64,000 nucleotides of DNA from an uncultured Clostridia bacterium (GTDB lineage: Bacteria > Bacillota > Clostridia > TANB77 > CAG-508). The DNA lies in assembly GCA_947594065.1 (NCBI GenBank), contig CANQDX010000003.1, forward strand, positions 499-64,498, given 5' to 3'. Below the pieces are notes generated by a model that was not told the origin of the DNA, did not search any database, and saw only the letters and a list, made by a program, of their open reading frames with translations. The translations under genes were made by a program, and so were the position numbers. Below, piece by piece: positions 6,117-34,290 of the stretch (position 1 is its first letter; each line of letters opens with the position of its first letter).

Positions 6117-6974
6117 ATGAATAATTTATTAGAAGAAACAAAGTTTATTTTAAAAAAATATGGAATTTCAGCCAATAAAAGCTTAGGACAAAATTTCTTA
6201 ATTAATGAAGAAGTAATTAAGAAAATGATAGAAGGAGCTGAAGTTTCTAAAAACGACCTAATTATTGAAATTGGACCTGGCTTGGGCACATTAACTAAAG
6301 AACTTCTAGAAAAAGCAGGAAAAGTAATTGCAATTGAACTAGATAAAAGAATGATAGAAATATTATCAGATAGATTTGCTTTATACACAAATTTTGAACT
6401 TATTAACCAAGATGTTTTAAAAGTAAATCTAAAAGAATTAATTTCTAATAATAAAATTCAAAATGGAACAGTAAAAATTGTTGCAAATTTGCCATATTAT
6501 ATAACAACACCAATTATAATGAAATTATTAGAAGAAAAGTTAGAGGTTGAATCTATTACAGTAATGGTGCAAAAAGAAGTTGCAGATAGACTAATAGAAA
6601 AACCAGGTGGCAAAAATTCTGGAGCAATTACCTATTCTGTTTACTATTATGCAACATCAGCTAATATTATAGAAGTAATGCCAGAATCCTTTATACCAGA
6701 GCCTTCTGTAGAATCTGAAGTAATCAAACTAACAATTAGAAAACAAGTACCTGTACAGATACAAAACGAAGAACTTTTATTTAAAATAATAAAATATGCA
6801 TTTATGCAACGAAGAAAAACATTGGTAAATGCATTAGAAAAAAGTGGAATATTTAATTCCAAAGAAGAAATTATAAAGATTTTAAAAAAATTAAACCTAA
6901 ATGATAGGGTAAGAGGAGAAGCGTTGTCCCTAGAAGATTATGCTAATATTACAAATCTCGTAACAAAAATGTAA
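6117..6974 (+). CDS. rsmA: 16S rRNA dimethyladenosine transferase
   Basis: LGQNFLINEEVIKKMIE...IIEIGPGLGTLT...VANLPYYITTPII... (KsgA/RsmA signature). Confidence 0.95.
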   Translation: MNNLLEETKFILKKYGISANKSLGQNFLINEEVIKKMIEGAEVSKNDLIIEIGPGLGTLTKELLEKAGKVIAIELDKRMIEILSDRFALYTNFELINQDVLKVNLKELISNNKIQNGTVKIVANLPYYITTPIIMKLLEEKLEVESITVMVQKEVADRLIEKPGGKNSGAITYSVYYYATSANIIEVMPESFIPEPSVESEVIKLTIRKQVPVQIQNEELLFKIIKYAFMQRRKTLVNALEKSGIFNSKEEIIKILKKLNLNDRVRGEALSLEDYANITNLVTKM

Positions 6975-7021
6975 AGAAAAAATAATATTATTTTAAAGCA
7001 AAATGTCGAAATAGTATATCC

Positions 7022-7073
7022 GTAAACGAAAAACAGACCTTTTTTAGAAAAAAGTCTGTTTTTTGGCGTTTAC
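7022..7073 (+). terminator. rsmA terminator (nested hairpin)
   Basis: Inner stem AAAACAGAC..GTCTGTTTT plus T6/A6 followed by a T-run. Outer stem GTAAACG (7022-7028) / CGTTTAC (7067-7073). Confidence 0.75.
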
Positions 7074-7207
7074 AGGAATAAATTGGATTAGCATTTTGAA
7101 AAAATATATTATATAATAAATATAATAGTGTACATAAAATACACTAATAAAAATTTAGCATAATTAAAAATATGGTTACACCATACTTTTAAAGGAGGAA
7201 ATTTCAA

Positions 7208-10200
7208 ATGAATCTTAGGAAATTTATTTTAAAATCTGTAGCAACAACTATGGCCATATCACTGGTCTATGGGAATGTTTCTATTTGTGGAATAGGAATA
7301 AGTAAAGCAATAGCTGAAGATAATATTCCACCAGAAATAGGAATAGAACTAAAAAATGAAGAGTATGTTCCATTCCATAAAGAAAAAGAAGAAGTAACAA
7401 ATAAAGGAATAGCAATTCATAGTAGTTTGGAAATACAACCAAAACAAGAAGAAGATAATTACCTACCAACCGAAAAAGTTGAGCTTGGAGTAAACTTACC
7501 TCAAATAAATGGAAGTTATCCAGAAGTTGCAAATGTAGTGCAAGCATCTACAAAATCTACTACTGGAGAAGAATTAAATACAAATATTACTCAGAATTAT
7601 AATAAAGATTCTGGTTTATTAAGTGTTTCCTATTTAAACTCTTCTAAAGAAGGAAACAAAAATGAAAAAGATAGATTTGAAATAATATATAAGTATTCTG
7701 TTCAAGATAATAATGAAGTTAATTTAACATATAAAGTAAATGCAAAAGTAACTTTCAAAGCAGAAAATGAAAACATTACATCAGAAAACAGTAAAGAAAT
7801 TTCCATAACAGAAAAAGAAAGTAAAGGAAACCTAACAGCATTTAACACACAAGCAAAAGAAGAAATTTATAAAGGATATTTATATTCAAATGTAGAAAAT
7901 CATACAAATTATGAAACAACTTTTAATACAGTATCTACTTATACAGTGTTAAATAGCCAATTAGCAGATACAACAACTTTAGAATTAGAAGAAAATAAAT
8001 TCTTATTAAATAAAGAAGAAAAAGATGCTAATGAAAATATCATATATAAACAAACAAAAATAAGCAAATATGAATTCGATAGAATGTTAGGACAAGAAGG
8101 AAAAATAGAAGTATATAAAGGAGAAGAAGTATTTGCAACTGTACAATATATTGATATAGATAATACAAAAAAATTAGCAGTTATTTACTTAAATGGAGAA
8201 ACAGAAGCATTACAAGATAACGAAGCTTATGCAGTTATAAAATACTCAGAAGATTTTACAAACTTAAATATAAAAATAACAAAACCAAATTCAGAAGGTT
8301 TCTTACATTTCGAAAATGAAAGCGCAATAAAAGCATCAGACAATTATGGAAATAATGTAGAAAAAATAAATGCAATTAGAATAACTAGCAAAATAAATAA
8401 TCAAACATCTAATACAGATATTACATTATCAGAACCAGAAACAAAAATAGCAATTACATCCAGCAATGTAAATCTTTCAACATTACAAGTTAATAAAACA
8501 ACATTAACTGTAAAATTAGACGATACAAATGCAAGTACAAAATTATTTAATAATCCTATCGTTACTATAAAATTACCAGAAGGTTTAACAAGCGGACACT
8601 TATCTAGCCCAAGACTTGTAAATGACAATGGATTAAAAATAAAGAAATCATCAACAAATAATAATGTCATTACAATAGAATTAGAAGGAAAACAATCTGC
8701 TTACGATTTAGAGAATGTAAGTGGTGGCGTAAGCATTGTAATGGATATTGATAACTTAAATTATAGCGATAAATTAGCATCTCATACAGACAAAATAGAA
8801 GTAACCTGTAAACAAGAAAAAGCAGAAACAAAGCAAAGTTTTCCTGTAAATATTGTATCTAAAGCAGGATTATTAATGTTATCTAAATTAAGTAATTTTG
8901 ATAATAGTGGAAATGTAAGCTCTACAGTTGATGACTTAAAAGTAATCAACTTAGAAAACGATGCAGAAACAAAAGAAGCAGTTCATACACTTACTTTAGT
9001 AAACAATTATGATGAAAATTTAACAAATGTAAAAATTATAGGAAGAATAGGCTATAGTAATGATGAATTAAAATCAACATTTGATACAAACTTAAGTAAA
9101 CCATTAGAAGTAGAAAATGCAAAAGTTTATTATTCTACTAATAAAGATGCAAAATTTGAAGATGAAGGATGGACAGAAGAATTTACAAATAATGCAAAAG
9201 CTTTTAAGGTAGAATTAAAAGATAATACAATGGCAAAAGCAGCAGGAATGGAAATAAAAGAAGCTGTACAAATTCCAGAAAAATTAGGTAACAATCAATC
9301 ATCTTACCTAAATTTAAGTATGACTTATCAATATCAAGAAAAAACTGTAGCAGATGAAGTTACAATAGGAATGCAAACACCACAAGATGGTTTAGCAAAT
9401 AATAGTAGTAAAGCAGAAAAAACAATAGTAACGCCAAAAGGTGAAAATTTACCAGTAAGCTTAGAAATAACACCATACATTAAACAAGACTATGTACATT
9501 CTGGACAAATTGTTATTTACAAATTACAAGTAAGAAATAACTCAGAACAAGATTTAGCTAACTTAGTATTAAAAGACATCATTCCAGAAAATGCAGTTTA
9601 TACATACAGAGGATTTGACGAAGAGGAAGAATTAAAAGCAATACAGGATGAAACTAAAGAAAAAGAATGGAAAATAGAAAGCCTAAAAGCAGGAGAAGTA
9701 CAAGAATTTGAAATAGCTCTTTTAATGAAAGAAACTAGCCAAGATTCAACTATTGAAAATAAAATACAATTAAAATATGAAGAACAAACCGTAGAACAAT
9801 CAAGTACTTTAACATTAAAACCTGCTAAAGCAACAGTAGTATTAAGCACTATTAGAGACGAGTCAAATACAGAAGAAGTAGGTTCATATGGTGCTAACGA
9901 AACAATTCAATACAGAGTAAGGGTAAAAAATACTACAGAAGATAACCTAAAAAATGTTAAAGTAACTTATGAAATTCCACAAGAAATAACATATATAACT
10001 GGAGGACTTGCTGAACTAGGAGAATTTGAAAGCAAGATAATTAAAGAAGGCACTATAAATAATAATATTTTTGAATATACAATTGATAATTTAAAATCAA
10101 ATGAAGAAAAAATATTATTTATAGAATGTGAAGTAAAACGTATGGCAAACAAATATAATGTACGAATAAGTGGTATTGCTAATATAGAAGTAGATGGAGA

Positions 10201-11734
10201 AGTATACGAATCAAACGTAAAAATGGATGAAACTTCTCAAGCAGCCTACAATATGTCTGTAGATACTAATATACCAATCGACCAACTTTTAGTATATGAC
10301 GATGAAATAACATATACAATAAGTGTAGTAAATATAGGAAAAGAGTCTGGTAGTATCAACATAAAAAACACTCTTCCAGCAGAAATAGAACCAGAAAAAA
10401 TGGAATATGGAAAACAGGGAGAAGAACCAACTATTATAGAAAAACCTTATAGAGAAATAGAAATTAGTGGAGAATTAGAACCAAACGAAGTAGAAATTAT
10501 TAAAATCTCAGGTACAGTAACTGTTAAAGAAGTAGAACAAACAACTGCATTTGAATTAACGAATGCTACTCAATTAGTTGTTGGAGAAGAAGTAATTTTA
10601 TCTAATGAATTAACACATAGAATGGAAATAGAAGTATTTAACCCAGACGACCCAACTAATCCAACCAATCCAGATAACCCAACTAACCCAGATGACCCAA
10701 GCAATCCAACCAACCCAGAAAATCCAGAAACAAATTCTTATACAATATCTGGAACAGCGTGGGTAGATGAAAACAAAAATGGTAAAAGAGATGAAAGCGA
10801 AAAACTACAAGATAGTGTAGTAGTAAGCTTAGTAAATAAAGAAACAGGAAACTTTGCCTTAGACCAAAATGGAAATAGAATTACTACAGTAACAGATGCA
10901 AACGGAAGATATGCTTTTACAGGTCTTCCACAAGGAAACTATATAGTATTATTCGAATTTGATATAAATACTTTTGCAGTAACTACTTATCAAAAAGAAG
11001 AAGTAGAAAAAAATCTAAATTCAGATGTTATTATGTCTAATGTAACAATAGACGGACAAGAAAAATTTGTGGCAATCACAAATACTATTTCATTAGATGA
11101 TAACGCAAACTATGTAGATATTGGTTTAATAGTAAATGCAACATTCGATTTAAGCTTAGAAAAATTAGTTTCAAAAGTTGCTGTTGTAGATAGCCGTGGA
11201 ACAGAAGAAACAACTTACGACAATAGCAATGTAGCAAAAGTAGACTTAGTTGCAAAATATATGAAAGGTGCTAATGTAATTGTAACTTACAAATTTGTAA
11301 TAAAGAACGAAGGAGAAGTAGCAAGCTTTGCAGATAGTTTAGTAGATAATTTACCAAGCGGATTAGAGTTTAACTCAGAATTAAATCCAGACTGGTATAG
11401 AGGAAATGATGGCAGCATATATACAACAGCATTAGCAGGAAAAACAATACAACCAGGTGAAAGCATTACAACAGAATTAGTATTAACAAAGAAAATGACA
11501 GAAGAAAATACAGGAACATTCCCTAATAGTGCAAAACTAGAAAAAATAAGTAACTTACAAAATATAGCAGAAAGCGAAAAAGCAATGGAAAATAATGAAT
11601 CATCAGCATTATTAATTATATCAATAAAAACAGGTTCAATATGGCTATATACAGGAATTACATTAATTAGCTTAAGCATTTTACTTGCAGGAGCTTACTT
11701 AATTAAGAAAAAAGTTCTGAATAAAGAAATATAA
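7208..11734 (+). CDS. Giant surface protein A1: signal peptide, ~700-aa unassigned region, three DUF11-type modules, (NPx)n linker, SdrD-B/Cna-B-like module, isopeptide-type Ig domain, SIKTG + hydrophobic + KKK tail
   Basis: 1508-aa ORF with AGGAGG at 7193-7198. DUF11-like strings: GQIVIYKLQVRNNSEQDLANLVLKDIIPENAVY; ETIQYRVRVKNTTEDNLKNVKVTYEIPQEITY; DEITYTISVVNIGKESGSINIKNTLPAEIE. SdrD-B-like string: YTISGTAWVDENKNGKRDE...DANGRYAFTGLPQGNYIV. Ig-domain string: SLEKLVSKV...VTYKFVIKNEGEVASFADSLVDNLPSGLEF...FPNSAKLEKISN. Confidence 0.85.
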   Translation: MNLRKFILKSVATTMAISLVYGNVSICGIGISKAIAEDNIPPEIGIELKNEEYVPFHKEKEEVTNKGIAIHSSLEIQPKQEEDNYLPTEKVELGVNLPQINGSYPEVANVVQASTKSTTGEELNTNITQNYNKDSGLLSVSYLNSSKEGNKNEKDRFEIIYKYSVQDNNEVNLTYKVNAKVTFKAENENITSENSKEISITEKESKGNLTAFNTQAKEEIYKGYLYSNVENHTNYETTFNTVSTYTVLNSQLADTTTLELEENKFLLNKEEKDANENIIYKQTKISKYEFDRMLGQEGKIEVYKGEEVFATVQYIDIDNTKKLAVIYLNGETEALQDNEAYAVIKYSEDFTNLNIKITKPNSEGFLHFENESAIKASDNYGNNVEKINAIRITSKINNQTSNTDITLSEPETKIAITSSNVNLSTLQVNKTTLTVKLDDTNASTKLFNNPIVTIKLPEGLTSGHLSSPRLVNDNGLKIKKSSTNNNVITIELEGKQSAYDLENVSGGVSIVMDIDNLNYSDKLASHTDKIEVTCKQEKAETKQSFPVNIVSKAGLLMLSKLSNFDNSGNVSSTVDDLKVINLENDAETKEAVHTLTLVNNYDENLTNVKIIGRIGYSNDELKSTFDTNLSKPLEVENAKVYYSTNKDAKFEDEGWTEEFTNNAKAFKVELKDNTMAKAAGMEIKEAVQIPEKLGNNQSSYLNLSMTYQYQEKTVADEVTIGMQTPQDGLANNSSKAEKTIVTPKGENLPVSLEITPYIKQDYVHSGQIVIYKLQVRNNSEQDLANLVLKDIIPENAVYTYRGFDEEEELKAIQDETKEKEWKIESLKAGEVQEFEIALLMKETSQDSTIENKIQLKYEEQTVEQSSTLTLKPAKATVVLSTIRDESNTEEVGSYGANETIQYRVRVKNTTEDNLKNVKVTYEIPQEITYITGGLAELGEFESKIIKEGTINNNIFEYTIDNLKSNEEKILFIECEVKRMANKYNVRISGIANIEVDGEVYESNVKMDETSQAAYNMSVDTNIPIDQLLVYDDEITYTISVVNIGKESGSINIKNTLPAEIEPEKMEYGKQGEEPTIIEKPYREIEISGELEPNEVEIIKISGTVTVKEVEQTTAFELTNATQLVVGEEVILSNELTHRMEIEVFNPDDPTNPTNPDNPTNPDDPSNPTNPENPETNSYTISGTAWVDENKNGKRDESEKLQDSVVVSLVNKETGNFALDQNGNRITTVTDANGRYAFTGLPQGNYIVLFEFDINTFAVTTYQKEEVEKNLNSDVIMSNVTIDGQEKFVAITNTISLDDNANYVDIGLIVNATFDLSLEKLVSKVAVVDSRGTEETTYDNSNVAKVDLVAKYMKGANVIVTYKFVIKNEGEVASFADSLVDNLPSGLEFNSELNPDWYRGNDGSIYTTALAGKTIQPGESITTELVLTKKMTEENTGTFPNSAKLEKISNLQNIAESEKAMENNESSALLIISIKTGSIWLYTGITLISLSILLAGAYLIKKKVLNKEI
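10641..10732 (+). repeat. In-frame 9-nt (Asn-Pro-x)n linker repeat in A1
   Basis: NPDDPTNPTNPDNPTNPDDPSNPTNPENPE encoded by reiterated aayccaRMY units. Confidence 0.9.
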
Positions 11735-11752
11735 GGGGAAGGAGGAAATAGA

Positions 11753-14700
11753 ATGAAAAAGAAATTAAAATTCAAGATTGTTATAATGTTAATTGCGATT
11801 TTATTGTTATTAGTTCCCATAATAACAAAAGCTTCAATATATAGTGATAGTGATTTAAAAAATAATAGAAACTATGTGTTCAGTAATGATTCTTATGGCG
11901 ATGAAAGCCATACCAAAAATAATCATTTTGTTGAAATAAAAGTAGGAAATGAAATAGCGGTTTATGTTAACGGTACATCCCCTGAAATGAGTCCTCACGT
12001 AAATACACTTAGCCTTCCTAATGTATATTGTCTTAATAACGGAGTAAACGCAGGTTGGGGTAGTTATAAAATAACTTCTGTTGGAAATAAAGCAAGCCCA
12101 TTACTAGCATATATATTAGCTCAAGGCCCAACGATGGGTCAACTTGAAAGTAATTATAAAAACGATCCATCACAACAGGCTTTGTGGTATTATATATCTA
12201 AAAGTAATTCAAGTGAGGCTTCATTTCTTCGTGGAAGCTTGGGATGCAATTCCGGTTCTCCTTCCAGCAAGGCACTAGAATATTATAATGATGCAGTAGC
12301 TTATGCAAATAAAGTAAATAATTCTAGTGGAATTATTTCTGAAGATGATGTAAGTGCTTCAATAAAAGATAGTACGTTAACAGTAACTGTAAAAGGAAGT
12401 TTTGAAAAATACGATTTATTAGTAAATGGTACAAAAAAAGGTGAATATTATGTTAGCAGTGGTCCACATTCTTATACTGTAAGTGGAGATACAGCAACAG
12501 TAAAAGTCATACCTTATGAGAAAAGATATAACGCAACATATGCTATAATAGAAAGATCTGGTCAACAAAGAATGATGGCAGTAACTAGCACATCATATGG
12601 TGATGAATTGTCAAAAATAGCTTGTGAGAAAACAGTAAGAAAAGAAGAAACCAATGTTTCTTTACAAAAATATATTGCTGCAGTAAATGGTTCAACAAGT
12701 AATATTCCGTTACAACCAAGAACAAACTTACAAGCTATAAGCAGTTCAAAGAATCAAATTTATGCATATAATAAATTTATAAATGAATTTGGCGATTCAA
12801 CACCAAATTCCTACAATGGAACAGGTTATAAAAAAACATCACCTGTTACAATTAAAAAGAATGATATTGTAACATATTATATACATCTTTATAATAATGG
12901 AAACGTATCTGCGAAGGTATCTGTGAATGATACTTTGAAAAAACTTTCTAATAGTAGTAGTACACTTGCTTTTAGTATTGCAGAAACTCCTAAAATAGAA
13001 TTTAGTACAAAAGGTTACAATTCAAATGGAAGTTATTCTGTAAAATCTACCAATTCTCTTACATATAGCAAGAGTGGAGCTTATATTTTGTTTAATGCAA
13101 TTACTTTAGAGGCCAATTCAACAGCACGTATAACTTTAAAAATAAAAATTGAGGAACAAATTGACTCAGGAGATCTAATAGAAAATAATGCGTGGATAAC
13201 AGGCGATGGATATAACAATCCTAATGGATATAGAACAGATGACTACGATTATGTAAAAATGGAACAGCCAGAAGCAACAAAACCAAATGTATCTTTACAA
13301 AAATATATTGCACAAGTAAATAATAAAAATTTAACATCTGCCCAGACATCTGTTACAAATAGATGGAACAGAAAAGATAATTCTGAAAGCATAGGACAAA
13401 TCTTTGATGGTGGTATTTTTAAAGATCCAAGTGGCAATAATGGTGGTTTGTCTTATAATAACGGTTATAAAAGTGAAAACCCTGTAAAAATACAATCTGG
13501 TGACAGTGTAACTTACTACATTTATGTATATAATAATAGCAATAAAATGGTCAAAGTTGATGTAAGTGACCACATATGCTTTGTATCAGATTCAGTCCTT
13601 TCTGAAAACGAATATACAATAACGCAAAGTGCATATGAAAATAGTAGTGATGGATATACATTCACAAGTAATGGTGGCAACAGCAGGATGACTCTTGACT
13701 ATAAAAAAGAAGGTGGCACAATTTACTTTAATACTATTACATTAGATGGTAAAAAAGCTGCTCGAATAACATTAACTGTTAAGTTTAATACCGATATTTC
13801 ATCAAGAGGGGTATTAGAAAATTATGCTGGTATTAGAAGTACAGATCCAACGAATAATACAACATTTAGAACAGGTGACTATGATTATGTAGAAATGGAA
13901 GAACCAGAGCTACCACCACCAGAAACACCAAAAACAAATGTATCTTTACAAAAATATATTGCTCAAGTAAATGGACAAAATTTAACTTCTGAAAATACAG
14001 ATGTTATAAATAGATGGAATGTGCAAGCAACATCACAAAGTGTAAATCAAATTTTTGCATCTAGGACTAAATTTGTGAATCCAGGAGGAAAAGAATATGA
14101 TGGAACTTCTAATACTACTATAGGCTATAAAAAAATAGATCCTGTTTTAATTAAACAAGGTGATATTGTAACTTATTACATCTATGTTTATGCTAATGAT
14201 AATAAAAAAGTTGATAGCATTATAGTAAAAGATCAATTAACTCATACCAATAGCAGTACACGACCATCTTATGCTATTCAGGGAAGTCCTACAATAGAAT
14301 ATAGTGATTTTGGCTATTCATATGGATCAGCCCAAACACTTAATTATACAACAAGTAACGATATTATTACTTTTAGTTCATTTAGCTTAAATTATCAAGT
14401 TGCTCGTATTACATTAAAAGTAAAAATAAATGAACAAATTCCAGCAGGAGATATGATAGAAAATAATGCATACATATATGATACAAATCCAGATAATAAT
14501 ACAACCTATAGAACAAGCGACTCTGATTATGTAGAAATGGAAGAACCAGAGCTACCACCACCAGAAGCACCAAAAACGAATGTATCTTTACAAAAATACA
14601 TTGGACAAGTAAATAATAAAAACTTAACCTTATCTATGTTAGAAATTTATGACAGATGGAACAGAAAAGATGTATCAGGAAGTATAGATAAAATTTATGA

Positions 14701-19963: not shown

Positions 19964-19970
19964 ATAAATT

Positions 19971-20013
19971 AGAATGACCTTAAAAGGATTGCCCTTTTGG
20001 GTCATTCTTTTTG
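19971..20013 (+). terminator. Terminator after B1
   Basis: AGAATGACC (19971-19979) / GGTCATTCT (20000-20008) with inner AAAAGG/CCTTTT, then TTTTT. Confidence 0.85.
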
Positions 20014-20028
20014 CAAAAATAAAAAAGT

Positions 20029-20084
20029 ATTGTCCCTAGAAAATAAGTTAAAAACGCCAGTTTTTGTAATACAAATGTAAAGAA
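20029..20084 (+). pseudogene. Degenerate relic of the rsmA 3' end at the duplication junction
   Basis: TTGTCCCTAGAA + 41 nt + ATGTAAAGAAAAAATAATATT matches rsmA 6921-6990 with identical spacing. The middle 41 nt are only partly conserved. Confidence 0.7.
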
Positions 20085-20135
20085 AAAATAATATTTCTTT
20101 AATGCAAATGTTGAAATAGTATATCCGTAAGCATA

Positions 20136-20170: not shown

Positions 20171-20306
20171 GCGCCTTTTGAACCTTTTTTTTACAAAAAT
20201 ACTAGATTTTATGAAAAAAATGTTGTATAATTAATATAATAGTGGACATAAAATTGGCATAATAATGGTATGCATACACTATACTTTCTAAAGGAGGAAA
20301 TTTCAA

Positions 20307-24884: not shown

Positions 24885-24904
24885 TTAGAAAGGAGGAGAC
24901 AAAT

Positions 24905-27900
24905 ATGAGTAAAAACTTAAAATTTAAAATAATAACAATAATGATATTTGCAATATTCTTACTTTTAGTTCCTATGCAAAATATTGTGCAAGCAAGTACA
25001 TTTGAAGATTATGGAAAATATAGTAATTGGAGAGAGTATATTTTCAATAATGTTAATAAGGCAACAAGAGTTGGTGACGATATGGTAATGCAAGATTATG
25101 GAAAAAATAATAAAGATGGTGACTATATATCTACTTTAAGTCTTCTAAATACATATTGTGTTGGACACGGTATAAAACTTCATCAAACCACATATAAATC
25201 AATAAGTAAAAGCGCATTTACCGTTACAGATCCTATATTAGAATACATTTTTGCAAATGGTCCTGCAGGATATGGTGTAACTACAGGAGGTAAGCTAGAA
25301 AGTGAGTATTGGACAGAACCAAGTCAAATAGTTTTATGGCATTATTTATTAAGTAACGCATCTAAAAATTCTTACGATGCCAATATTATGACAAATGGTA
25401 ATCCAGGTGGATACGGTCATAGTTCTTCATATTATGAATGCTGCGATATATTATTCAATAAAGATCATAAAACACTTAAAGAATTAACAGGAAAGTATAA
25501 AGAGTTTTGGGACGCAGCACAAAACTATAAACAAATGGTGAGCCACATTAATGGTCAACCAAAATTAAGTGCAAAACTTGATGGTAATACTTTAAAAGTA
25601 ACAGTAAGTGGCGATTTCACAGATTTTGAACTAAAAATAAACGACCAATCAAAAGGAAAATACACAAAATCTATGGATGAAACCAAAGTAATTACATTTA
25701 ATAATGTTAGTAGCTCTTCATCTATCAAAGTAACAGTAACAGCAGAAAGATATGAATATAATGTAAAATATTATGTATATGTAGATTCTGCAAATAGATA
25801 CCAACCAGTGGTTGTTATAACAGATGTTACTAAAAGAATAGTTACTACATCAACTACAACTACTATTAATAATAAGGTTAATATTTCATTACAAAAACAT
25901 ATTGCAATGGTAAATGATAAAAGATTAACAGTAAATAATTCAGATGAAACTTGGAGAACAAATTTGAAAGCAGAAAGTAGTTCAACAAGTAAAATTCATA
26001 ATGGTAAATTTTATAATGAACACGTAGGCTTATATGATAAAGATGGAGGAAGTAAAGAAGGAATAAAGAAACAATCTCCTGTTGCTATCCAAAAAGGAGA
26101 TATTGTAACCTACTACATACATATTTATAATAATGGTACAGCAACTGCTAATAATATTATTTTAAAAGATACTTTAACCCATTTGGGAAGTACAAATACA
26201 CCTAGTTTCAGTATTGAGAGTGCGTTATTAGAATTTGGTACATATGTAGAACCAGGTTTGTACGATATGTATACACCTTTTAAAGCCACATCTCAAAGAA
26301 ACTTAGGTTATACTAAGAGTGGTAAAACGATGACATTTAATTCATTCTCCTTAAATGGAGGATCTATGGCTCGTTTAACATTAAAGGTAAAAATCAATGA
26401 GCAAATTTACAAGGGAGAACTAATAGAAAATAATGTATATATATCAAATTATACTAACCCAGAGGGCTATAGAACAAGCGACTCAGATTATGTTACAATG
26501 AATGAAATACCAAAAACAAATGTAAGTGTATCTTTACAAAAATATATTGCTGAAGTAAACGGACAAAGTTTAACAGCTGACAACACAGATACTACAAAGA
26601 GATGGAATTTAAGAGCACAATCAAATAGTATAAGCCAAATTTTCAGTACTCGTTTGAAATATACAAGCCCAGAGGGAGATTATGTTGGAACTTCTTATGA
26701 TGAAAGAGGTTATAAAATTCAACACCCTGTTACAATAAAAAATGGTGATGTTGTAACATATTATATATTTGTTTATGTTCACGATAATAGCTATGTTGCA
26801 AATGATATTATTGTAAAAGATCAATTAACTCATAGAAACAGTGATTCAAGTCCATCTTATATTATACAAGAACAACCTATTATTGAGTACAGTTATGATG
26901 GAAATAGTTCTTTTGATGATGCAAGTCCGCTAGGATTTAATATAAGCAATAATATGATTACATTTAGTCCATTTAATTTAAATAATAAAGCAGCTCGTAT
27001 TACATTAAAAGTAAAAATAAATGAACAAATTCCAGCAGGAGATATGATAGAAAACAAAGCATATATATATGATACAGACCCAGAAAATAATACAACATTT
27101 AGAACCGAAGACGCAGATTATGTAAAAATGATTGAACAAGATACTCCAAAAACAAACGTATCTTTACAAAAATATATTGCACAAGTAAATAATCAAAATT
27201 TAACAGCAAGTAATACATCAGTTCAAAATAGATGGAATTTGAAAGATGAACAAGGCAGCATAGACCAAATTTTTGATGGAAACATATTTAAGAACCCAGC
27301 TGGATTGCAATATAGTACATCTTATAGAGATTTAAAGAGCAAAAATGCTGTTAAGATTATAAAAGGAGATACAGTAACTTATTATATCTATGTTTATAAT
27401 AATAGTGAAAATAAAACAAATCTTTATGTAACAGATATATTAGGATTTGTATCTTTACAAAATAATCTTTCAGATAATGATTATACTATAATTAATAGCA
27501 CAATAGAGTTTGGCAGCGATGGATTTAACTTCAGTAATGGCAAGGAGCTTACATATGATAAAAATGGAAATAAAATAGAATTTGATACATTCGATTTGGA
27601 AGGTAAAACAGCTGCTCGTATAACATTAAAAGTTAGATTTGATACAGATATTTCTGATAAGGGAGTTTTAAGAAATTATGCTTGTATCAGTTACACTAGC
27701 CCAGAAAATAATACAACTTATAGAACAGAAGATGCAGACTATATTGAAATGGTAAAAGAATTCAAAGTAAGTTTGGAAAAATATATTTCTTCTGTACATA
27801 ACGATAAAGGCGTAAATGTACCTATTAATTCAAGAAGCGGTTTAGAAGAATATAAAACAGAAAGAAATGGTAGATTAGTAGACGAAACGGATAAAGATAC

Positions 27901-30900
27901 TGATTGGACACAACATAACAAGAGAAAAGAGCTTTCACCAGTAACAGTAGGAAATGGATATTATATTACTTATACAATTATAGTAAGAAATGATGGAATT
28001 TGCCCAATAACAGTTAGCAAAATTATAGATAGTTTACCAGAAGGAATTTCTTACTATAAAGACGGTGGATATTCTGCAACATTAAGTGATTATACAGCAA
28101 GACCAAGTGGTGGTGATATTACAATAACAAGAACCGGTGCAACATTGTTAAAACCAGGAGGTAGCACATCTGTATTACTTACTGTTGTTGTAAGCGAATC
28201 TAACCTTTCTATGAGGGTATTGAAAAATACAGCTAAAATTACAGAACTTAAAGATGGAAATGACATATTAGTTGCAGATAAGTATGATATGACACCATAT
28301 AATAACCAAGACTCTGATTATTTCCAAATGAACTTAATGCTACCAGTTGGAATTAGAGGAATGGTATGGAATGATAAAGCATTAAATAAACAACAAGATA
28401 ATTACAATGGAATATATGATGCAGACAAGGAAAATAAATTAGGCGGAATTAAAGTTTACTTATATAGAGAAGGAGAAAATGGATTTGTAGCTACTACAAC
28501 AACAGATTCAGACGGAAATTACGAATTTACAAATATTCCAGGACGTAACAGAGTAACAGGAGATTTCTATTCATACTATGTAGTATTCGAATATGATGGT
28601 ATTACTTATACACCAACTGTTTATGCAGAAGCGATAACATCAAAAGATATAGAACATACATCAAATGCACAAGAAAAATTAAATAGTAATGATAGTTTTG
28701 ACGGAAGAGTAAATAAAGCAAGAACAACATTTAATAATGAATTTGGTACAATAAATAATTCTACTAAGGAAATTAAATATACAACACAAAACGAAGATGG
28801 CTGGACACCAGAGTCACATCATATCTATAATTCAAATATGGCAATTCAAGCTTCAACTAGAAAAATTACAATAAGAGATAATGATAGCGATTTAATGGCA
28901 AAATTACAACACATCGACTTAGGATTAAGAGGTAGAGATATAGTAGACTTACAATTAACATCAGATGTATATTCTACAAGGGTAACAGTAAATGGTGTAG
29001 ATGGAGCATATAAATTCAATAGCAACCAAGTTACAGTAAGACAAGAAGATATAGGTATAAAACCAGATGCAGCAAACTTTGGACGTGAAGAATTAATACC
29101 TTCTATATCAGAAGTAAATCAAGAAATCAGAAAAACAGATATTAAAAATTCTCAATATGATCATACAGGTTTAAAAATACAAGTAACATATAAATTAACT
29201 ATTAAAAATGCATCTGTAACAACTGCAAAAGCAAATATTATTACAGATTACTTCGATAACAAGTATGATTTTGTAGAAGCATATTACCTAAACGGAAATA
29301 CTAAATCTACATTAAATACATCAACTGGAACAAGCGGAAATGGATATAAATCTGTAGCAATCACAACTCCAAACAGCTGGTTAAATCAAAATGCATTAAT
29401 GGATATATACTTAGTTCTTGATTTAAAAGATGCAGAAACAGTTTTACAACAAATAGTAAATAGTGGAGTAGGAAACTTACCTACATTCAACATTGCAGAA
29501 ATAACAGAATACTCAACAACAGTAACAAGCGGTGGAACAGAGTTTACAAGAGGCTTAATAGATAAAGACTCAGCACCAGGAAGTATAGATAGAGAGCAAG
29601 CAAGATTAACAACAACATTATGGAGTACACCTACAGAAGGTGGAAATCCAACAACATTAGGTTACTATTATGGAAAAGCAATTGAATATTTAAATGACAG
29701 AAGCAAAACAGAAATAAATAACCTAAAATGTGAAGACGATACAACTACATCACCAGTTCTATACTTTACAGCTTCCGGAAATAACAGAACAATAAGCGGA
29801 ACAGTATTTAGAGATAACACAAAAACTGATGCTACAACAAGAATAAAAACCGGAAATGGAAAATTAGATAATGGCGAAGTAGGAGTATATGGAGCAACAG
29901 TAGAATTAATAGAATTAGTAGGAAATGACCAAAAAGTAAGAAGTAAAGTAACAACAGGAACAGACGGAAAATACACATTCTCAGGATTCTTACCAGGTAA
30001 CTATATTATAAGATATCATTATGGTGATACAACAAATACTGTATTATTAAATCAAGCAGGTCCAGACATTAATAAATATTCATATAACGGAGAAGATTAC
30101 CAAGCAACAAATAATACAGGAACGTACGGAGCATCTAAATTAGATACTACACCAGACTTCTGGTATGTATATAACGAAAACCAAGGTGTATCAACAGCTA
30201 CAGATAGTATAAGCAGAAGAAATACTGTAAGTGCAAATGTAACAAACTTTACAGATGAGCAAATGACAGTATTAAATAATATAAGAGACGGTAAAAATGC
30301 TGAAGATGCAAAAGTAACTTACACAAAGGCCGATGGTACTACAGAAACTATTACTGTACAAGACATTATAGATAAAACAAATATGGAATCTAACACACCT
30401 TCATTCCGAATCACAGTTGAAAAAACAGAAATTACAAGTGGAGGCTTACAAGAAAAAGCAGCATTTAGTCCATACACTGTAACAAATATGAACTTTGGTG
30501 TAGCAGAAGTACCAGTAACAACAATTAATTTAACAAAACAAATAAAAGAATTCTCAATAATTGACTCTGCAGGCGAAAATGTAATGGCAAAAGCAACTAG
30601 AAAAGCAAATGGTGATTGGGATATTCCGGAGGCAGACAGCGATGTACTTATATTACCAGGTAAGGGATTAGATGTAAGTGTTATAGATGAGAGATTACAA
30701 GGTGCAAGATTAACAGTAACATATACAATTACTTCAACTATCTCATTAGAGAAAAACTTCAACAACGGAAATGCGGTTGTACCAACAATTACAGGAATGG
30801 TAGACTTTATCGATAACGACTTATCATATAATCCAGATTTGGGAAACAACAATACTTATTGGGAATCAGTAACATTTGATGATGTAAGAAATATATTTGC

Positions 30901-31381
30901 ACAAGCTAAGTATAAAAATGGAAGTGTTCCAAAAGGAACAGTTGATCCAGACGGAACTAAATTCCAGACAATTGTAAAAGCAAAATCATCTAACCCAATA
31001 CTAACACCAACAAACGGAACAGCAACAACAGAAATAACATTAGAAAAAGTATTATCATCAACAGATTCAACATTCCAAGAAATTGTAACAAGTGCAGTAG
31101 ATGGTTATGAATACAACAACACAGTAGAAATAACAGGTTTGGACTATAAGAATGTTACAGATGACGGAACAGAGCCACAAAGAGATAGAGTAAGAATACC
31201 AACAAGATATATTATTCTACCAGGCGTACAACACGATAGTGCTACATCAGACACAATTAATATTCACCCAAAACTAGGAGATAGCAGTATGATGATAACT
31301 TACTATGTAATTGCAGCAGTTTCATTAGTTGTATTAGCAGGAGGAATCTTCATTATCAAAAAATATGTAATTGCAAAATAA
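24905..31381 (+). CDS. Giant surface adhesin B2 (paralog of B1; divergent N-terminal Cys/Gln domain, 3+1 repeats)
   Basis: 2158-aa ORF starting 20 nt after A2. TYCVGHG (Cys85) and EPSQIVLWHY (Gln141). The C-terminal ~1200 aa are highly similar to B1, with the same HPKLGD tail. Confidence 0.85.
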   Translation: MSKNLKFKIITIMIFAIFLLLVPMQNIVQASTFEDYGKYSNWREYIFNNVNKATRVGDDMVMQDYGKNNKDGDYISTLSLLNTYCVGHGIKLHQTTYKSISKSAFTVTDPILEYIFANGPAGYGVTTGGKLESEYWTEPSQIVLWHYLLSNASKNSYDANIMTNGNPGGYGHSSSYYECCDILFNKDHKTLKELTGKYKEFWDAAQNYKQMVSHINGQPKLSAKLDGNTLKVTVSGDFTDFELKINDQSKGKYTKSMDETKVITFNNVSSSSSIKVTVTAERYEYNVKYYVYVDSANRYQPVVVITDVTKRIVTTSTTTTINNKVNISLQKHIAMVNDKRLTVNNSDETWRTNLKAESSSTSKIHNGKFYNEHVGLYDKDGGSKEGIKKQSPVAIQKGDIVTYYIHIYNNGTATANNIILKDTLTHLGSTNTPSFSIESALLEFGTYVEPGLYDMYTPFKATSQRNLGYTKSGKTMTFNSFSLNGGSMARLTLKVKINEQIYKGELIENNVYISNYTNPEGYRTSDSDYVTMNEIPKTNVSVSLQKYIAEVNGQSLTADNTDTTKRWNLRAQSNSISQIFSTRLKYTSPEGDYVGTSYDERGYKIQHPVTIKNGDVVTYYIFVYVHDNSYVANDIIVKDQLTHRNSDSSPSYIIQEQPIIEYSYDGNSSFDDASPLGFNISNNMITFSPFNLNNKAARITLKVKINEQIPAGDMIENKAYIYDTDPENNTTFRTEDADYVKMIEQDTPKTNVSLQKYIAQVNNQNLTASNTSVQNRWNLKDEQGSIDQIFDGNIFKNPAGLQYSTSYRDLKSKNAVKIIKGDTVTYYIYVYNNSENKTNLYVTDILGFVSLQNNLSDNDYTIINSTIEFGSDGFNFSNGKELTYDKNGNKIEFDTFDLEGKTAARITLKVRFDTDISDKGVLRNYACISYTSPENNTTYRTEDADYIEMVKEFKVSLEKYISSVHNDKGVNVPINSRSGLEEYKTERNGRLVDETDKDTDWTQHNKRKELSPVTVGNGYYITYTIIVRNDGICPITVSKIIDSLPEGISYYKDGGYSATLSDYTARPSGGDITITRTGATLLKPGGSTSVLLTVVVSESNLSMRVLKNTAKITELKDGNDILVADKYDMTPYNNQDSDYFQMNLMLPVGIRGMVWNDKALNKQQDNYNGIYDADKENKLGGIKVYLYREGENGFVATTTTDSDGNYEFTNIPGRNRVTGDFYSYYVVFEYDGITYTPTVYAEAITSKDIEHTSNAQEKLNSNDSFDGRVNKARTTFNNEFGTINNSTKEIKYTTQNEDGWTPESHHIYNSNMAIQASTRKITIRDNDSDLMAKLQHIDLGLRGRDIVDLQLTSDVYSTRVTVNGVDGAYKFNSNQVTVRQEDIGIKPDAANFGREELIPSISEVNQEIRKTDIKNSQYDHTGLKIQVTYKLTIKNASVTTAKANIITDYFDNKYDFVEAYYLNGNTKSTLNTSTGTSGNGYKSVAITTPNSWLNQNALMDIYLVLDLKDAETVLQQIVNSGVGNLPTFNIAEITEYSTTVTSGGTEFTRGLIDKDSAPGSIDREQARLTTTLWSTPTEGGNPTTLGYYYGKAIEYLNDRSKTEINNLKCEDDTTTSPVLYFTASGNNRTISGTVFRDNTKTDATTRIKTGNGKLDNGEVGVYGATVELIELVGNDQKVRSKVTTGTDGKYTFSGFLPGNYIIRYHYGDTTNTVLLNQAGPDINKYSYNGEDYQATNNTGTYGASKLDTTPDFWYVYNENQGVSTATDSISRRNTVSANVTNFTDEQMTVLNNIRDGKNAEDAKVTYTKADGTTETITVQDIIDKTNMESNTPSFRITVEKTEITSGGLQEKAAFSPYTVTNMNFGVAEVPVTTINLTKQIKEFSIIDSAGENVMAKATRKANGDWDIPEADSDVLILPGKGLDVSVIDERLQGARLTVTYTITSTISLEKNFNNGNAVVPTITGMVDFIDNDLSYNPDLGNNNTYWESVTFDDVRNIFAQAKYKNGSVPKGTVDPDGTKFQTIVKAKSSNPILTPTNGTATTEITLEKVLSSTDSTFQEIVTSAVDGYEYNNTVEITGLDYKNVTDDGTEPQRDRVRIPTRYIILPGVQHDSATSDTINIHPKLGDSSMMITYYVIAAVSLVVLAGGIFIIKKYVIAK
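25880..28335 (+). repeat. Tandem array of four Ig-like domain repeats in B2
   Basis: Repeat starts at 25880 (NISLQKHI), 26519 (NVSVSLQKYI), 27155 (NVSLQKYI) and 27764 (KVSLEKYISSV). Confidence 0.9.
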
Positions 31382-31388
31382 GTAAATT

Positions 31389-31432
31389 AGAATGACCTTA
31401 AAAGGAATAACCTTTTAAGGTCATTCCTTTAA
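31389..31432 (+). terminator. Terminator after B2
   Basis: GAATGACCTTAAAAGG AATAA CCTTTTAAGGTCATTC, homologous to the B1 terminator. Confidence 0.8.
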
Positions 31433-31476
31433 AATAAGGAAAATTTTTGAATTTTCTTATTTGTTCATAAAATGTA

Positions 31477-31505: not shown

Positions 31506-31525
31506 AGATATGAAGGAGATAAAAG

Positions 31526-32326
31526 ATGAATCAGATATTAGTATGCGAAAAAATATATGTAACACCAGAATTAAAAAGAAAAAAGAAACTATATAAATTC
31601 AACTTTATAGCTTCTATTTTTCTTGTTATTGTTTTATTTGGTTATTATGTATATGCTGAATATGATAGAAATTCATCTGACAAGTCTAAAGAAATTCTTT
31701 CACAGCTAGAGGTAGTAGAAACTCCTGTAGATGTTGGACAAATAGATTCTACAGTAAAATTACAAGATGATGTACTAGTGGTAGTGCTAGATGATACACA
31801 AGAAGATACTTCAGAATCAACAGAAGTAAATTTGGAAGAATTAATAGAAGCAAACAAAAGAGCAGAATCTAAAATAGATACAAAATATTATCAAACCAAA
31901 AGTGGAGAAAGTTATACAACTGTAGCAGTAATAGAAATACCAAAAATAAATGTTACTTATCCTGTTATTTATAGTAAAAATACAAGTGCTGAAACAACAG
32001 AGGAATTATTAAAAATTTCAGTAGTAAAATATTGGGGACCTGAACCAAATGAGCAAGGTAATTTCTGTATTGTAGGGCATAATTACCATAATAAAAAATT
32101 TTTCAGTAAAGCATCTACCTTGAAAAAGGGAGACAGTATTTATTTAACAGGTACTAACAACGAAACTTTAGAGTATAAGGTGTATGATAATTATGTTGTA
32201 GAGCCTAATAATTTAAAATGTACCAGTCAATTAACAAATGGTCAAACAGAACTTACTTTAATCACTTGCACAATGACAGGAAAGCAAAGAACAATTATTA
32301 AAGCAAGAGCGGTCAGTGCAAACTAA
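31526..32326 (+). CDS. Sortase-family transpeptidase (N-terminal TM anchor, acidic spacer, TLITC active site)
   Basis: FCIVGHNY (His185), TELTLITCT (Cys248), GKQRTIIKA (Arg255). No C-terminal TM segment and no obvious DP[WFY] lid. Confidence 0.85.
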   Translation: MNQILVCEKIYVTPELKRKKKLYKFNFIASIFLVIVLFGYYVYAEYDRNSSDKSKEILSQLEVVETPVDVGQIDSTVKLQDDVLVVVLDDTQEDTSESTEVNLEELIEANKRAESKIDTKYYQTKSGESYTTVAVIEIPKINVTYPVIYSKNTSAETTEELLKISVVKYWGPEPNEQGNFCIVGHNYHNKKFFSKASTLKKGDSIYLTGTNNETLEYKVYDNYVVEPNNLKCTSQLTNGQTELTLITCTMTGKQRTIIKARAVSAN

Positions 32327-32394: not shown

Positions 32395-32419
32395 AACATA
32401 ATATTAAGGAGGTTTTTGT

Positions 32420-34213
32420 ATGAATAATAAAATAAGTCTAAGATTAGTATCACTCATTATTTGCATCATAATGATGACTACATTTATGATGCCAGCTGTA
32501 GTGAATGCATCTAGCTTATCCGATTCTGCTAAAAAAACAGTATTAAAAACAGTAAATGATATAGAAAAATATATAGATGAAAATAAATATCCTGGTTATA
32601 AGGAAAAATTAGTTGCATTAAAAAAAGCGAATCCTAACTGGAAATTTACTTTATATTATACAGGATTAAATTGGGAAACTGTTGTATATAACGAAGCAAA
32701 GGGATTACATAGCAGAAGCTTAGTACAAGGTAAAACAGGAGAATGGTTATGCGAGAATTGTGGAACAAAAGTATATGATGCAGGTGGTTGGATGTGTGCT
32801 TCAGAAAAGGCTGTAAGTTATTTAATGGATGTGAGAAATTATTTAACAGCAAGTTACATATTTCAGTTTGAAGAACTATCTTATAATAAAGATACATACA
32901 CAATCGATGGCATAGAAAAAGTATTAAATGGAACATTTATGTATAAAAAAAGCATAAGAGATTATTATAATAATTCTAAATTTGAAGATATTACATTTTC
33001 AAAAGCAATTATGGAAGCAGCAAATCAAAGTGGGGTAAGCCCTTATTATTTAGCCGCAAGAATTAGACAAGAAATTGGTGTAAATGGATCTAACTCTATT
33101 TATGGAACATATAAAGGATATGAAGGATACTACAATTTTTATAACATTGGTGCTACAAGTGGAAGTGACCCAATTGCAAATGGATTAAAATATGCTTCTA
33201 ATACAAGCGTAGGAAAATACTTATTACCTTGGAATGATCCTATAAAAGCAATTAAAGGTGGAGCAATATGGATTGCAACAAATTATATTGCAGTAGGTCA
33301 AGATACATTATATTTCCAAAAATTTGATGTTGTACAAAATGGAACAGCATTTTATAATCACCAATATATGCAAAATATCTTTGCTGCCAAAAACGAAGGA
33401 TATACGACATATAATGCATATAGTAAATTAGGACTATTAGATAATAATTACAACTTTATAATACCAGTATACGAAAAAATGCCAAAGGCAGTATCTACAG
33501 AACCTAAAAATACTGTAACAAGCGAACAAATGAAAGTAACAGAAAATAATGTAATGCTTAGAGAAGAGCCAACAACTTCTAGCGCAAGATTAGCTGTTTT
33601 AAAGAAAGATACAGTTTTAACTAGACTAGAGGCGAAAGTGGCAACTGCAAACGGATATAGTTGGGATAAGGTAAGATTATCAAATGGAACAGTAGGTTAT
33701 GTAGCAACTAACTATCTAAGCGCTGTAAAAGCAAATTCATCAAGTAGTTCTTCAAGCACAAGTTCATCAGAAAAAGTAAAAGTAAATGCAAGTAATGTAA
33801 ATGTAAGAAAAAGTGCAACTACATCTAGTAGCAAAATAACAACATTAGCTAAAAATACTGTTGTAACAAGATTACAAAAGAATGTAGCATATAAAAATGG
33901 CTACTACTGGGATAAGATACAATTATCAAATGGCAAAACAGGTTATATGGCATCTAAATATTTAACGGTTGTAAGTTCTTCATCTAGCAGTAATAGCAGT
34001 TCATCATCAGGCGAAAAAGTTAAAATAAATGCAAGTAGAGTAAATGTAAGAAAGAGTGCAACAACATCTAGTGGAGTAATAAAAACACTTTCAAAAAATA
34101 CAGTAGTAACAAGATTACAAAAGAAAGTAGCATATAAAAACGGTTACTACTGGGACAAAGTAAAGTTATCTGATGGAAAAATAGGATATATTGCTTCAAA
34201 ATATTTATCATAA
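32420..34213 (+). CDS. Secreted peptidoglycan hydrolase: GH73 N-acetylglucosaminidase-type domain + three SH3b domains with poly-Ser linkers
   Basis: Signal peptide. AIMEAANQSGVSPYYLAARIRQEIGV...YNFYNIGA (glucosaminidase motif). Three SH3b-like units (...NGYSWDKVRLSNGTVGYV; ...NGYYWDKIQLSNGKTGYM; ...NGYYWDKVKLSDGKIGYI). Confidence 0.85.
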   Translation: MNNKISLRLVSLIICIIMMTTFMMPAVVNASSLSDSAKKTVLKTVNDIEKYIDENKYPGYKEKLVALKKANPNWKFTLYYTGLNWETVVYNEAKGLHSRSLVQGKTGEWLCENCGTKVYDAGGWMCASEKAVSYLMDVRNYLTASYIFQFEELSYNKDTYTIDGIEKVLNGTFMYKKSIRDYYNNSKFEDITFSKAIMEAANQSGVSPYYLAARIRQEIGVNGSNSIYGTYKGYEGYYNFYNIGATSGSDPIANGLKYASNTSVGKYLLPWNDPIKAIKGGAIWIATNYIAVGQDTLYFQKFDVVQNGTAFYNHQYMQNIFAAKNEGYTTYNAYSKLGLLDNNYNFIIPVYEKMPKAVSTEPKNTVTSEQMKVTENNVMLREEPTTSSARLAVLKKDTVLTRLEAKVATANGYSWDKVRLSNGTVGYVATNYLSAVKANSSSSSSSTSSSEKVKVNASNVNVRKSATTSSSKITTLAKNTVVTRLQKNVAYKNGYYWDKIQLSNGKTGYMASKYLTVVSSSSSSNSSSSSGEKVKINASRVNVRKSATTSSGVIKTLSKNTVVTRLQKKVAYKNGYYWDKVKLSDGKIGYIASKYLS

Positions 34214-34240
34214 TGAAAAACAAACGCATATAATATTTTG

Positions 34241-34290
34241 AAGGGGAACCAAAAAGGGTCAGACCCTTTTGGGTTCCCCTTATTTTTTCT
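34241..34290 (+). terminator. Terminator after the autolysin gene
   Basis: AAGGGGAACC..AAAGGGTC AGA GACCCTTTT..GGGTTCCCCTT followed by a T-run. Confidence 0.85.

Follow-up and report, generated by a model that had tools for sequence, protein, structure and literature searches.

Thioester adhesins form covalent bonds with their targets, and to our knowledge, few of them are known outside pathogens. Some sortase-assembled pili carry a tip adhesin with a thioester domain (TED), such as Cpa of Streptococcus pyogenes, or the BcpA/BcpB system of Bacillus cereus with its LPVTG/IPNTG motifs. Fibrillar adhesins of the TIE type, including SfbI, CpTIE, and BaTIE (PDB 6FWV), have been described (Walden 2015, PMC4450167; Miller 2018, PMC6194298). 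The TED motifs were defined in the latter work (PMC6194298), as was the class II arrangement, in which a beta-sandwich insert precedes the second Gln; the bond is formed not by the Gln of the TQxxW motif but by a later one. The stalks of fibrillar adhesins can be formed by DUF11, a CnaA-like isopeptide domain renamed CLIPPER (PMC12617251; PDB 9IFR). Among clostridial sortases, SrtB of Clostridioides difficile recognizes (S/P)PXTG signals (PPKTG, SPKTG) in substrates that include adhesins and wall hydrolases (PMC4155245), and SrtD of Clostridium perfringens (4D70) has a preference for LPQTGS. Here, we analyzed a 64,000-nucleotide stretch of contig CANQDX010000003.1 from an uncultured Clostridia bacterium (the window), in which four giant genes for surface proteins, arranged as two pairs, A1-B1 and A2-B2, lie between rsmA and dapA. 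We consider it probable that this locus is a variable adhesin island, whose giant products are independently anchored by a neighboring housekeeping-type sortase and in which the B proteins are thioester-tipped, isopeptide-stabilized stalks.

The system is already known in kind, being one of sortase-dependent fibrillar TIE adhesins, and it leaves the understanding of such systems unchanged. Like TIE proteins, the B proteins have head motifs of the YC-hydrophobic, TQxx-hydrophobic-W-like, and hydrophobic-Q-x-hydrophobic-hydrophobic types with a class II-like beta-sandwich insert, an isopeptide-type Ig-like stalk, a C-terminal sorting signal, and a sortase encoded nearby. They differ from them by their size (2158-2736 aa, versus ~560 for BaTIE), by a rare and very divergent head that is sub-threshold for Pfam TED and has no sequence match in the PDB, by a stalk of extended ~200-aa CLIPPER-like modules rather than CnaB domains, and by a signal that reads IHPPTG or IHPKLG rather than LPXTG. 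The variant features of the locus are a rare divergent TED family, extended CLIPPER-like modules, and non-LPXTG signals together with an unclassified sortase, to which are added a conserved A-B gene pair and a duplicated, mosaic locus.

A predicted thioester-like head at the N terminus of the B proteins

As judged from its sequence, the head of the B proteins is likely a divergent class II-like TED. Its motifs in B1 are Cys93 (VYCLN), Gln141/Trp145 (SQQALW) and, past the beta-sandwich insert, the candidate bond-forming Gln272 (GQQRMMAV); those in B2 are Cys85 (TYCVG), SQIVLW, and RYQPVVV. The Cys of the [VI][YFW]C motif is invariant in 19 sequences of the head family, as are the Gln and Trp of the S/A-Q-x-x-hydrophobic-W motif, with Ser replacing the Thr of the TQXX motif in B1 and B2. 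A later Gln, ~180 aa past the Cys and in a hydrophobic-Q-x-hydrophobic-hydrophobic context, is present in all 16 sequences that reach that far. The head motifs are kept across 18 sequences that share just 18-35% identity. By analogy with the characterized domains, the bonding residue would be Gln272 in B1 and the Gln of RYQPVVV in B2.

The Pfam TED profile (PF08341) aligned with residues 91-187 of B1 over positions 2-102 of its 102, with 16.7-18.2 bits, and it matched 13 of the 19 head-family members at E<=1 (best E 5e-6). A B1/B2 head profile, run exhaustively with HMMER against 1.84 billion representatives, yielded 24 clusters only. The full-length matches are mostly proteins of 1700-2640 aa with the same N-terminal head and an IHPPTG tail. 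When a model of the B1 head was submitted to Foldseek, TIE of Bacillus anthracis (6FWV) ranked second, with an E value of 6e-3, the longest alignment (239 columns), and a TM-score of 0.29. Several observations weigh against the assignment: the best score of B1 is below the Pfam gathering score (18.2 versus 22 bits), Pfam TED gives no match in B2, and the AlphaFold 2 (AF2) model of the B1 head, made from a 3-sequence alignment, is poor (predicted local distance difference test [pLDDT], 61.8), so that the TED call rests on the motifs together with the transitive Pfam matches. In the PDB, no match was found for the sequences of A1, B1, and B2, and profile searches with B-head alignments gave chance lectin matches or none; a word-indexed search for homologues of the B1 head returned one fragment only.

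The B2 head contains a vicinal Cys-Cys (YYECCDILF; aa 179-180, nt 25439-25444) that is absent from B1 and common to the relatives P0126 (KECCSDF) and P0127 (HSCCTAY). When the members of one alignment (A7) were scanned, a single sequence, possibly the short TED-family fragment P0136, matched Pfam Ribosomal_L4 strongly (2.2e-13), which suggests a chimeric gene call.

CLIPPER-like modules of the B stalks

B1 is composed of a signal peptide, the thioester-type head, seven tandem CLIPPER-like modules, CnaB/SdrD_B and DUF11-like domains, and the sorting signal, and it holds ~370 aa without a family match. B2 has four modules, and this difference in number accounts for the difference in length between the two proteins. 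Lys59, Asp92, and Asn177 are invariant in 11/11 modules. A profile of the modules had a sole match in the PDB, 9IFR, with an E value of 0.18; the spacing of 33 between Lys59 and Asp92 is that of K715 and D748 in 9IFR, whose triad is K715/D748/N806. The B modules thus resemble the described CLIPPER adhesin (PMC12617251) in being tandem and CnaA-like, in their Lys/Asp/Asn triad, and in its Lys-Asp spacing, but they have ~55 extra N-terminal residues, an insert of ~27 residues, and a second invariant Lys/Asp set, and the characterized example is a Gram-negative adhesin anchored through OmpA. The second set, Lys5 (VSLQKYI) with Asp196/Asp198 (DxDYVxM), recurs in each module and may form another cross-link within the molecule or serve as a strand-swap element.

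All four giants matched PF01345 (34-56 bits, cutoff 24.6) and TIGR01451 (38-82 bits, cutoff 24), and SdrD_B/CnaB-like domains passed their curated cutoffs in all four as well. A preliminary description of the locus had assigned DUF11-type modules to the A proteins and a Cys/Gln N-terminal domain followed by Ig-like repeats to the B proteins. Its Cys/Gln domain corresponds to the thioester-type head, but DUF11 does not discriminate between A and B because the B proteins carry DUF11/CLIPPER domains too. Isopeptide bonds are predicted in the stalk domains.

The A proteins resemble headless stalks

A1 starts with a signal peptide (residues ~1-35) and an array of Ig-like beta-sandwich domains (36-~745), followed by CLIPPER/DUF11 domains (~752-857, ~893-984, ~1029-1112, and ~1355-1467), with a Pro/Asn-rich linker (1146-1175) and an SdrD_B/CnaB-like domain (1180-1280) before the last of these. 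The CLIPPER triad was checked by eye in the A domains, and the Lys may be missing in some of them. Pfam gave nothing for residues 36-760, and a word-indexed search with the head region of A retrieved just four homologues from 5.8 billion proteins. The AF2 model (pLDDT 72.8) is all-beta, and Foldseek aligned it with Ig-like domain strings of PrgB, of antigen I/II C-terminal regions, and of integrin legs. Because residues 36-760 are modeled as Ig-like strings and have no Pfam match, A looks like a stalk-like surface protein without an identifiable head. The likeness of residues 36-745 to the Ig-like strings of PrgB and antigen I/II (8BEG, 3QE5; Foldseek E 2e-14 to 2e-9) is one of fold only, with 8% identity and a TM-score of <0.25, as domain orientations differ; moreover, A has no counterpart of the adhesin/polymer-binding domain of PrgB, and the locus lies in the chromosomal core, not on a plasmid. 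A conjugation- or plasmid-related adhesin, of the PrgB type or like the TED adhesin of pLS20, was ruled out by that location, with plsX, a penicillin-binding protein (PBP) gene, and rsmA on one side and dapA/murC, ribosomal-protein operons, SecY, and rpoA on the other.

In three metagenome contigs, a stop splits the A-type gene, whose frame is carried on by the following open reading frame (ORF) (L013, 7418-11224; L014, 1630-5040; L015, 1018-5421). These are either pseudogenes or the result of homopolymer or assembly errors in repetitive genes.

Sorting signals and the adjacent sortase

All four giants have the signal peptide and the tail that the preliminary description had noted; the signal peptide is of the Sec type, and the tail consists of a short motif, ~22 hydrophobic residues, and a Lys-rich end. 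No other ORF of the 64-kb window has such a tail. The A-type motif is (I/V)SIKTGS in the window and in the related loci L012 and L018, and it is SIGTGA in L015. The B-type tails of relatives read (I/V)HPPTG, except for IHEPTG in L007 and TGPTG in L015. IHPPTG and SI[KG]TG are kept just before the transmembrane (TM) segment and K/R tail in relatives that are only 35-50% identical.

The protein encoded downstream of B2 is a sortase, as proposed from its TLITC motif, with scores of 89 bits for Pfam Sortase (PF04203) and 63.5 bits for TIGR01076 (cutoff 39.35). It has an N-terminal TM segment, and its catalytic residues His185, Cys248 (in TLITC), and Arg255 are invariant in 20 homologues. Homologues are many, 69-81% identical, and all from uncultured Clostridia, including metagenome-assembled genomes (MAGs) from Hadza gut and rabbit ("Lapin"). 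The nearest solved structure is that of C. perfringens SrtD (4D70; E 3e-11). The NCBIfam class models gave 62.5 bits for class C (cutoff 160), 48.6 for E, 40.2 for SrtD, 33.6 for F, and 32.7 for D, each short of the cutoff of its model, and those of classes A and B gave no match. As no class can be assigned, the sortase comes without a known specificity, which counts against the proposed anchoring. It resembles SrtB of C. difficile (PMC4155245) as a clostridial single housekeeping-type sortase with non-LPXTG signals of the x-P-x-T-G form, but SrtB belongs to class B, and the motifs differ from those of SrtB, as the window A signal (SIKTG) keeps T-G and has no Pro, and the window B signal (HPKLG) has no Thr.

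The B signal raises a further difficulty. Both B copies of the window read IHPKLG, with Leu in place of the scissile Thr, as do three independent assemblies of the same strain, making sortase processing of B uncertain in this strain. It is conceivable, if not likely, that B is no longer a sortase substrate here and is membrane-tethered or shed, with A alone linked to the wall. More than 13 relatives have IHPPTG with the same flanking residues, the variant was recovered in all three of those assemblies, and C. difficile SrtB is motif-specific and cuts between Thr and Gly (PMC4155245). However, the rest of both B genes is under purifying selection, with a ratio of nonsynonymous to synonymous divergence (dN/dS) of 0.3-0.65, which argues that the proteins are still used, and B1 and B2 share 94% identity at their 3' ends, meaning that the variant was kept or homogenized rather than lost. 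As regards A, such a loss is compatible with the independent anchoring that we favor. The motif is encoded by CCA AAA CTA GGA in the window and by CCA CCA ACA GGT in relatives; a compensated frameshift from PPTG to PKLG was considered, and the DNA comparison favors neither a frameshift nor four substitutions.

Giant genes vary at a conserved sortase-dapA block

Among close relatives, the locus holds 0, 1, 2, or 4 giant genes. No giant adjoins the sortase gene in L005 and L010, where rsmA precedes it, in L009, where the PBP gene does, and in L011, where the upstream context is another one. B alone is found between rsmA and the sortase gene in at least five lineages (L001/2/4/8, L003, L006, L017, and L022). 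One A-B pair occupies this position in L012 (A-B gap of about 30 nt) and L018 (20 nt), and at least two pairs are represented in the window and in L015, where a B tail is followed by A and then by B. The block from the sortase gene to dapA, usually with a gene for a secreted hydrolase, is kept also in the loci without giants (L005, L009, L010, and L011). The hydrolase gene is present in the B-only or no-giant loci examined (L001, L005, L006, L009, L010, L011, L017, and L022) and missing between the sortase gene and dapA in both single-pair loci, L012 and L018. The distribution argues that the sortase and the autolysin are the backbone and the giants a variable cargo, and it does not support the earlier idea of a self-contained module.

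The claim that A and B act as a pair fared better. The A-to-B order with a gap of 3-37 nt is conserved in the window (twice) and in the independent lineages L012, L015, and L018. Strict co-occurrence was borne out in one direction, as A without B directly downstream was not seen in this small sample, and failed in the other, given the B-only lineages. That A always has B downstream hints at a functional tie beyond the independent anchoring that we favor, and to that extent it speaks against it.

Such a tie would be explained if A and B formed a two-component covalent fiber, in which the sortase couples the C terminus of B, the thioester tip, to a Lys of A, the stalk or base, before A itself becomes wall-linked, i.e., a minimal heterodimeric pilus, like a tip pilin on a base pilin, without polymerization. 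We regard this as improbable. The recurrent close A-to-B order and the duplication of the pair as a unit fit such a fiber, as do the absence of a recognizable head in A, which has Ig-like and stalk domains only, and the distinct motif types of A (SIKTG) and B (HPPTG), since pilus operons route their subunits in this manner. TED-bearing pilus tip adhesins such as Cpa of S. pyogenes exist, and the loci of such pili likewise combine neighboring genes for two surface proteins with differing motifs, one sortase, and a thioester tip. However, a regular-expression search of the four giants found no LPXTG, no YPKN-type pilin motif, and no E-box. The sortase is far below the class C cutoff (62.5 versus 160 bits), and it ends in ...ARAVSAN, without a second, C-terminal TM segment or a DPW-type lid. 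As already stated in the preliminary description, the locus is not that of a textbook pilus. The proteins are 5-10 times the size of pilins. In addition, at least five lineages have B with the same IHPPTG signal but no A, the same sortase is kept where both A and B are missing, and B has a stalk of its own of more than 1500 aa. Because IHPPTG is unchanged whether A is present or not, B appears to be anchored independently instead of being mounted on A. Slightly more doubtful still is an obligate A-B fiber in which an unclassified, non-class-C sortase acting on HPPTG/SIKTG would join B to a Lys of A, PKLG then reflecting a changed routing of B.

In L024, a prophage-like block (13820-19736; serine recombinase, S24 repressor, ERF, HNH, DnaB_2, and an SpoVG-like gene) lies directly 3' of a Na/Ca exchanger gene adjoining the giant-gene locus. 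In the Hadza-gut MAG loci L001, L006, and L008, two overlapping ORFs (1-1783) stand in place of a single PBP gene 5' of rsmA, owing either to a frameshift or to an assembly error.

The A-B pair was duplicated in tandem

Comparison of the region with itself using blastn delimited two abutting repeat units, with matches between 6924-11820 and 20030-24975 (84.4% identity) and between 15041-20032 and 26369-31449 (79.6% identity). The left edge, 51 nt inside the 3' end of rsmA, agrees with the start at 6923 given in the preliminary description, and by the limits of the blastn alignments, the end of unit 1 coincides exactly with the start of unit 2. At the junction (20030-20080), a decayed relic of the 3' end of rsmA matches the real end of the gene at 35/51 nt, with the coding sense gone. 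Such a relic is expected from a duplication in situ and not from the misassembly of two strains. On the sequence evidence, the duplication is real and old, and it is tandem, in agreement with the preliminary description.

An assembly artifact, with alleles of one A-B operon from two strains joined in tandem, seems very improbable to us. Three independent short-read assemblies contain the same strain (99.98-100% identity), and every one breaks within the 3' region of B2, as repeats would cause; the strain is also present in ERZ27060145, ERZ27249440, and ERZ27249451. No independent assembly spanning the unit junction was found, a 45-mer of the junction is absent from the JGI metagenome collection, and there is no other record of exactly the A2 protein. 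Yet the copies differ by 16-20% in DNA and by their module counts (7 versus 4), and the junction consists of a clean terminator followed by decayed rsmA, where a two-strain misjoin would bring an intact rsmA end. Moreover, L015 is serial as well, and the ORFs are intact in both copies, with dN/dS below 1.

Divergence between the copies is uneven. The full-length protein identity of A1 and A2 is 77.6%; that of B1 and B2 is 67.6% in the C-terminal ~1800 aa and 38% at the N terminus, with 76-85% identity of the C-terminal part of B2 to B1. The DNA identity is mosaic, with 94-98% at the 3' end of A, 80-94% over the last third of B, reaching 94% at its 3' end, and only 56-62% over the B head region. 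Synonymous divergence (dS) is 0.08-0.45 for A, 0.19-0.41 for the C-terminal half of B, and 1.0-1.6 for the B head and first modules. The latter value indicates that the history of the B head cassette differs from that of the rest, either through recombinational replacement or through a much older divergence. Throughout, dN/dS between the copies is 0.2-0.8, indicative of purifying selection, and both copies thus appear to be maintained.

Organization of the locus

The four giant ORFs are all on the + strand and sum to 7,927 codons, as first described (Table 1). The window has a low G+C content (~29%), with a positive GC skew on the + strand. The A1 stop codon and the B1 start are separated by 18 nt (GGGGAAGGAGGAAATAGA) and those of A2 and B2 by 20 nt (TTAGAAAGGAGGAGACAAAT), with GGAGG inside each gap, as had been reported. 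Each pair also has the conserved upstream region and the terminator that had been attributed to it: the regions upstream of A1 and A2 share 85% column identity on alignment and contain a TATAAT-bearing site in both cases, and hairpins follow B1 and B2. Each pair would be cotranscribed.

Table 1 Features of the giant-gene region (positions in the window)
Feature	Position (nt)	Strand	Remarks
rsmA	6117-6974		Left flank of giant-gene region
Repeat unit 1	6924-20031	+	Last 51 nt of rsmA, promoter region, A1, B1, terminator; blastn
Promoter-like site 5' of A1	7088-7117	+	TTAGCA-18-TATAAT; consensus match only
A1	7208-11734	+	1508 aa
A1 sorting signal	11621-11731	+	aa 1472-1508; SIKTGS + TM + KKK
B1	11753-19963	+	2736 aa
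B1 TED-like head	11990-12622	+	aa ~80-290
B1 stalk	12656-16987	+	7 tandem CLIPPER-like modules, ~200 aa each
B1 sorting signal	19844-19960	+	IHPKLGD + TM + KK; HPKLG at 19847-19861
Intrinsic-terminator-like hairpin after B1	19979-20001	+	19979-20011 including T-run
Repeat unit 2	20030-31449	+	rsmA relic, promoter region, A2, B2, terminator; blastn
Promoter-like site 5' of A2	20211-20240	+	Counterpart of A1 site; consensus match only
A2	20307-24884	+	1525 aa; architecture as in A1
A2 sorting signal	24771-24881	+	SIKTGS
B2	24905-31381	+	2158 aa
B2 TED-like head	25118-25834	+	aa ~72-310
B2 stalk	25883-28363	+	4 tandem CLIPPER-like modules
B2 sorting signal	31265-31378	+	IHPKLGD; HPKLG at 31265-31279
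Terminator-like inverted repeat after B2	31389-31427	+	17-bp stem
Sortase gene	31526-32326	+	266 aa
Secreted peptidoglycan hydrolase gene	32420-34213	+	597 aa
Terminator hairpin after hydrolase gene	34243-34290	+	

Upstream of A2, a T8 run (CCTTTTTTTTAC; 20150-20165) lies within a 9-nt insertion not present 5' of A1, and the A1 5' leader has in turn a 15-nt stretch without a counterpart upstream of A2. Given these differences, the A1-B1 and A2-B2 operons may differ in their regulation. A riboswitch or leader element was sought 5' of A1 and A2, by reference to the cyclic di-GMP control of C. difficile sortase substrates, and none was found in Rfam; over the whole window, no Rfam family reached its gathering score, with chance matches only at E<=1.

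The hydrolase was originally described as a secreted GH73+SH3b protein. Its signal peptide and three SH3_3 (SH3b) domains were found; the GH73-like region (~aa 122-342) is supported by weak similarity, with phmmer matches in the PDB to SagB (6FXP, 6.8e-8), Atl (6FXO), and AtlE (4PI7) at E values of up to 5e-6 and with Glu218 aligned with the Glu of the SagB LLETG motif. It has no match to Pfam Glucosaminidase (PF01832) and scores 42.6 bits against 425 for NCBIfam SagB. Homologue alignments and the gene calls of L019 place the true start of dapA at ~34307, after a GGAGG; the mechanically called ORF starts at a TTG at 34238, and its additional 5' stretch (34238-34306) overlaps the hydrolase terminator hairpin.

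Minus-strand ORFs within the giants (e.g., 11287-11679 and 30319-30852) were dismissed as shadow ORFs. No integrase or transposase was found among the window ORFs scanned by Pfam, and the window contains no tRNA genes, although genes for ribosomal proteins L3, L2, and S3, SecY, and rpoA are present (40-56 kb).

Discussion

The reading that we favor is that of an island in a core chromosomal site between rsmA and the conserved sortase-hydrolase-dapA block, comprising two paralogous bicistronic operons, each with a promoter-like region and a terminator. The A protein would be a long stalk of Ig-like, CLIPPER, and CnaB-type domains with predicted isopeptide bonds. The B protein would be a TIE-type fibrillar adhesin whose tip TED could bond covalently to a ligand, being held far from the cell by four or seven CLIPPER-like modules and further Ig-like domains. 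Sec would export all four giants, and the C-terminal hydrophobic segment and positive tail would retain them until the adjacent unclassified sortase cuts the LPXTG-like motif (SIKT|G in A, HPPT|G in the B family) and links each protein separately to peptidoglycan. The second pair arose by tandem duplication in situ, with the final 51 nt of rsmA copied as well, and the B head and first modules would later have been exchanged or have diverged far beyond the rest. The outcome would be the display of two different thioester tips on stalks of two lengths.

The locus thus places a rare, divergent TED family on giant stalks in uncultured Clostridia of the human and rabbit gut. The B proteins are also a source of candidate self-ligating modules of the Cys-Gln and Lys-Asn types, new to protein engineering. 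Outside all curated classes and accompanied by HPPTG and SIKTG signals, the sortase could widen the known range of sortase specificities. Since 0, 1, 2, or 4 giants occur among close relatives, the locus is a likely determinant of strain-specific gut colonization.

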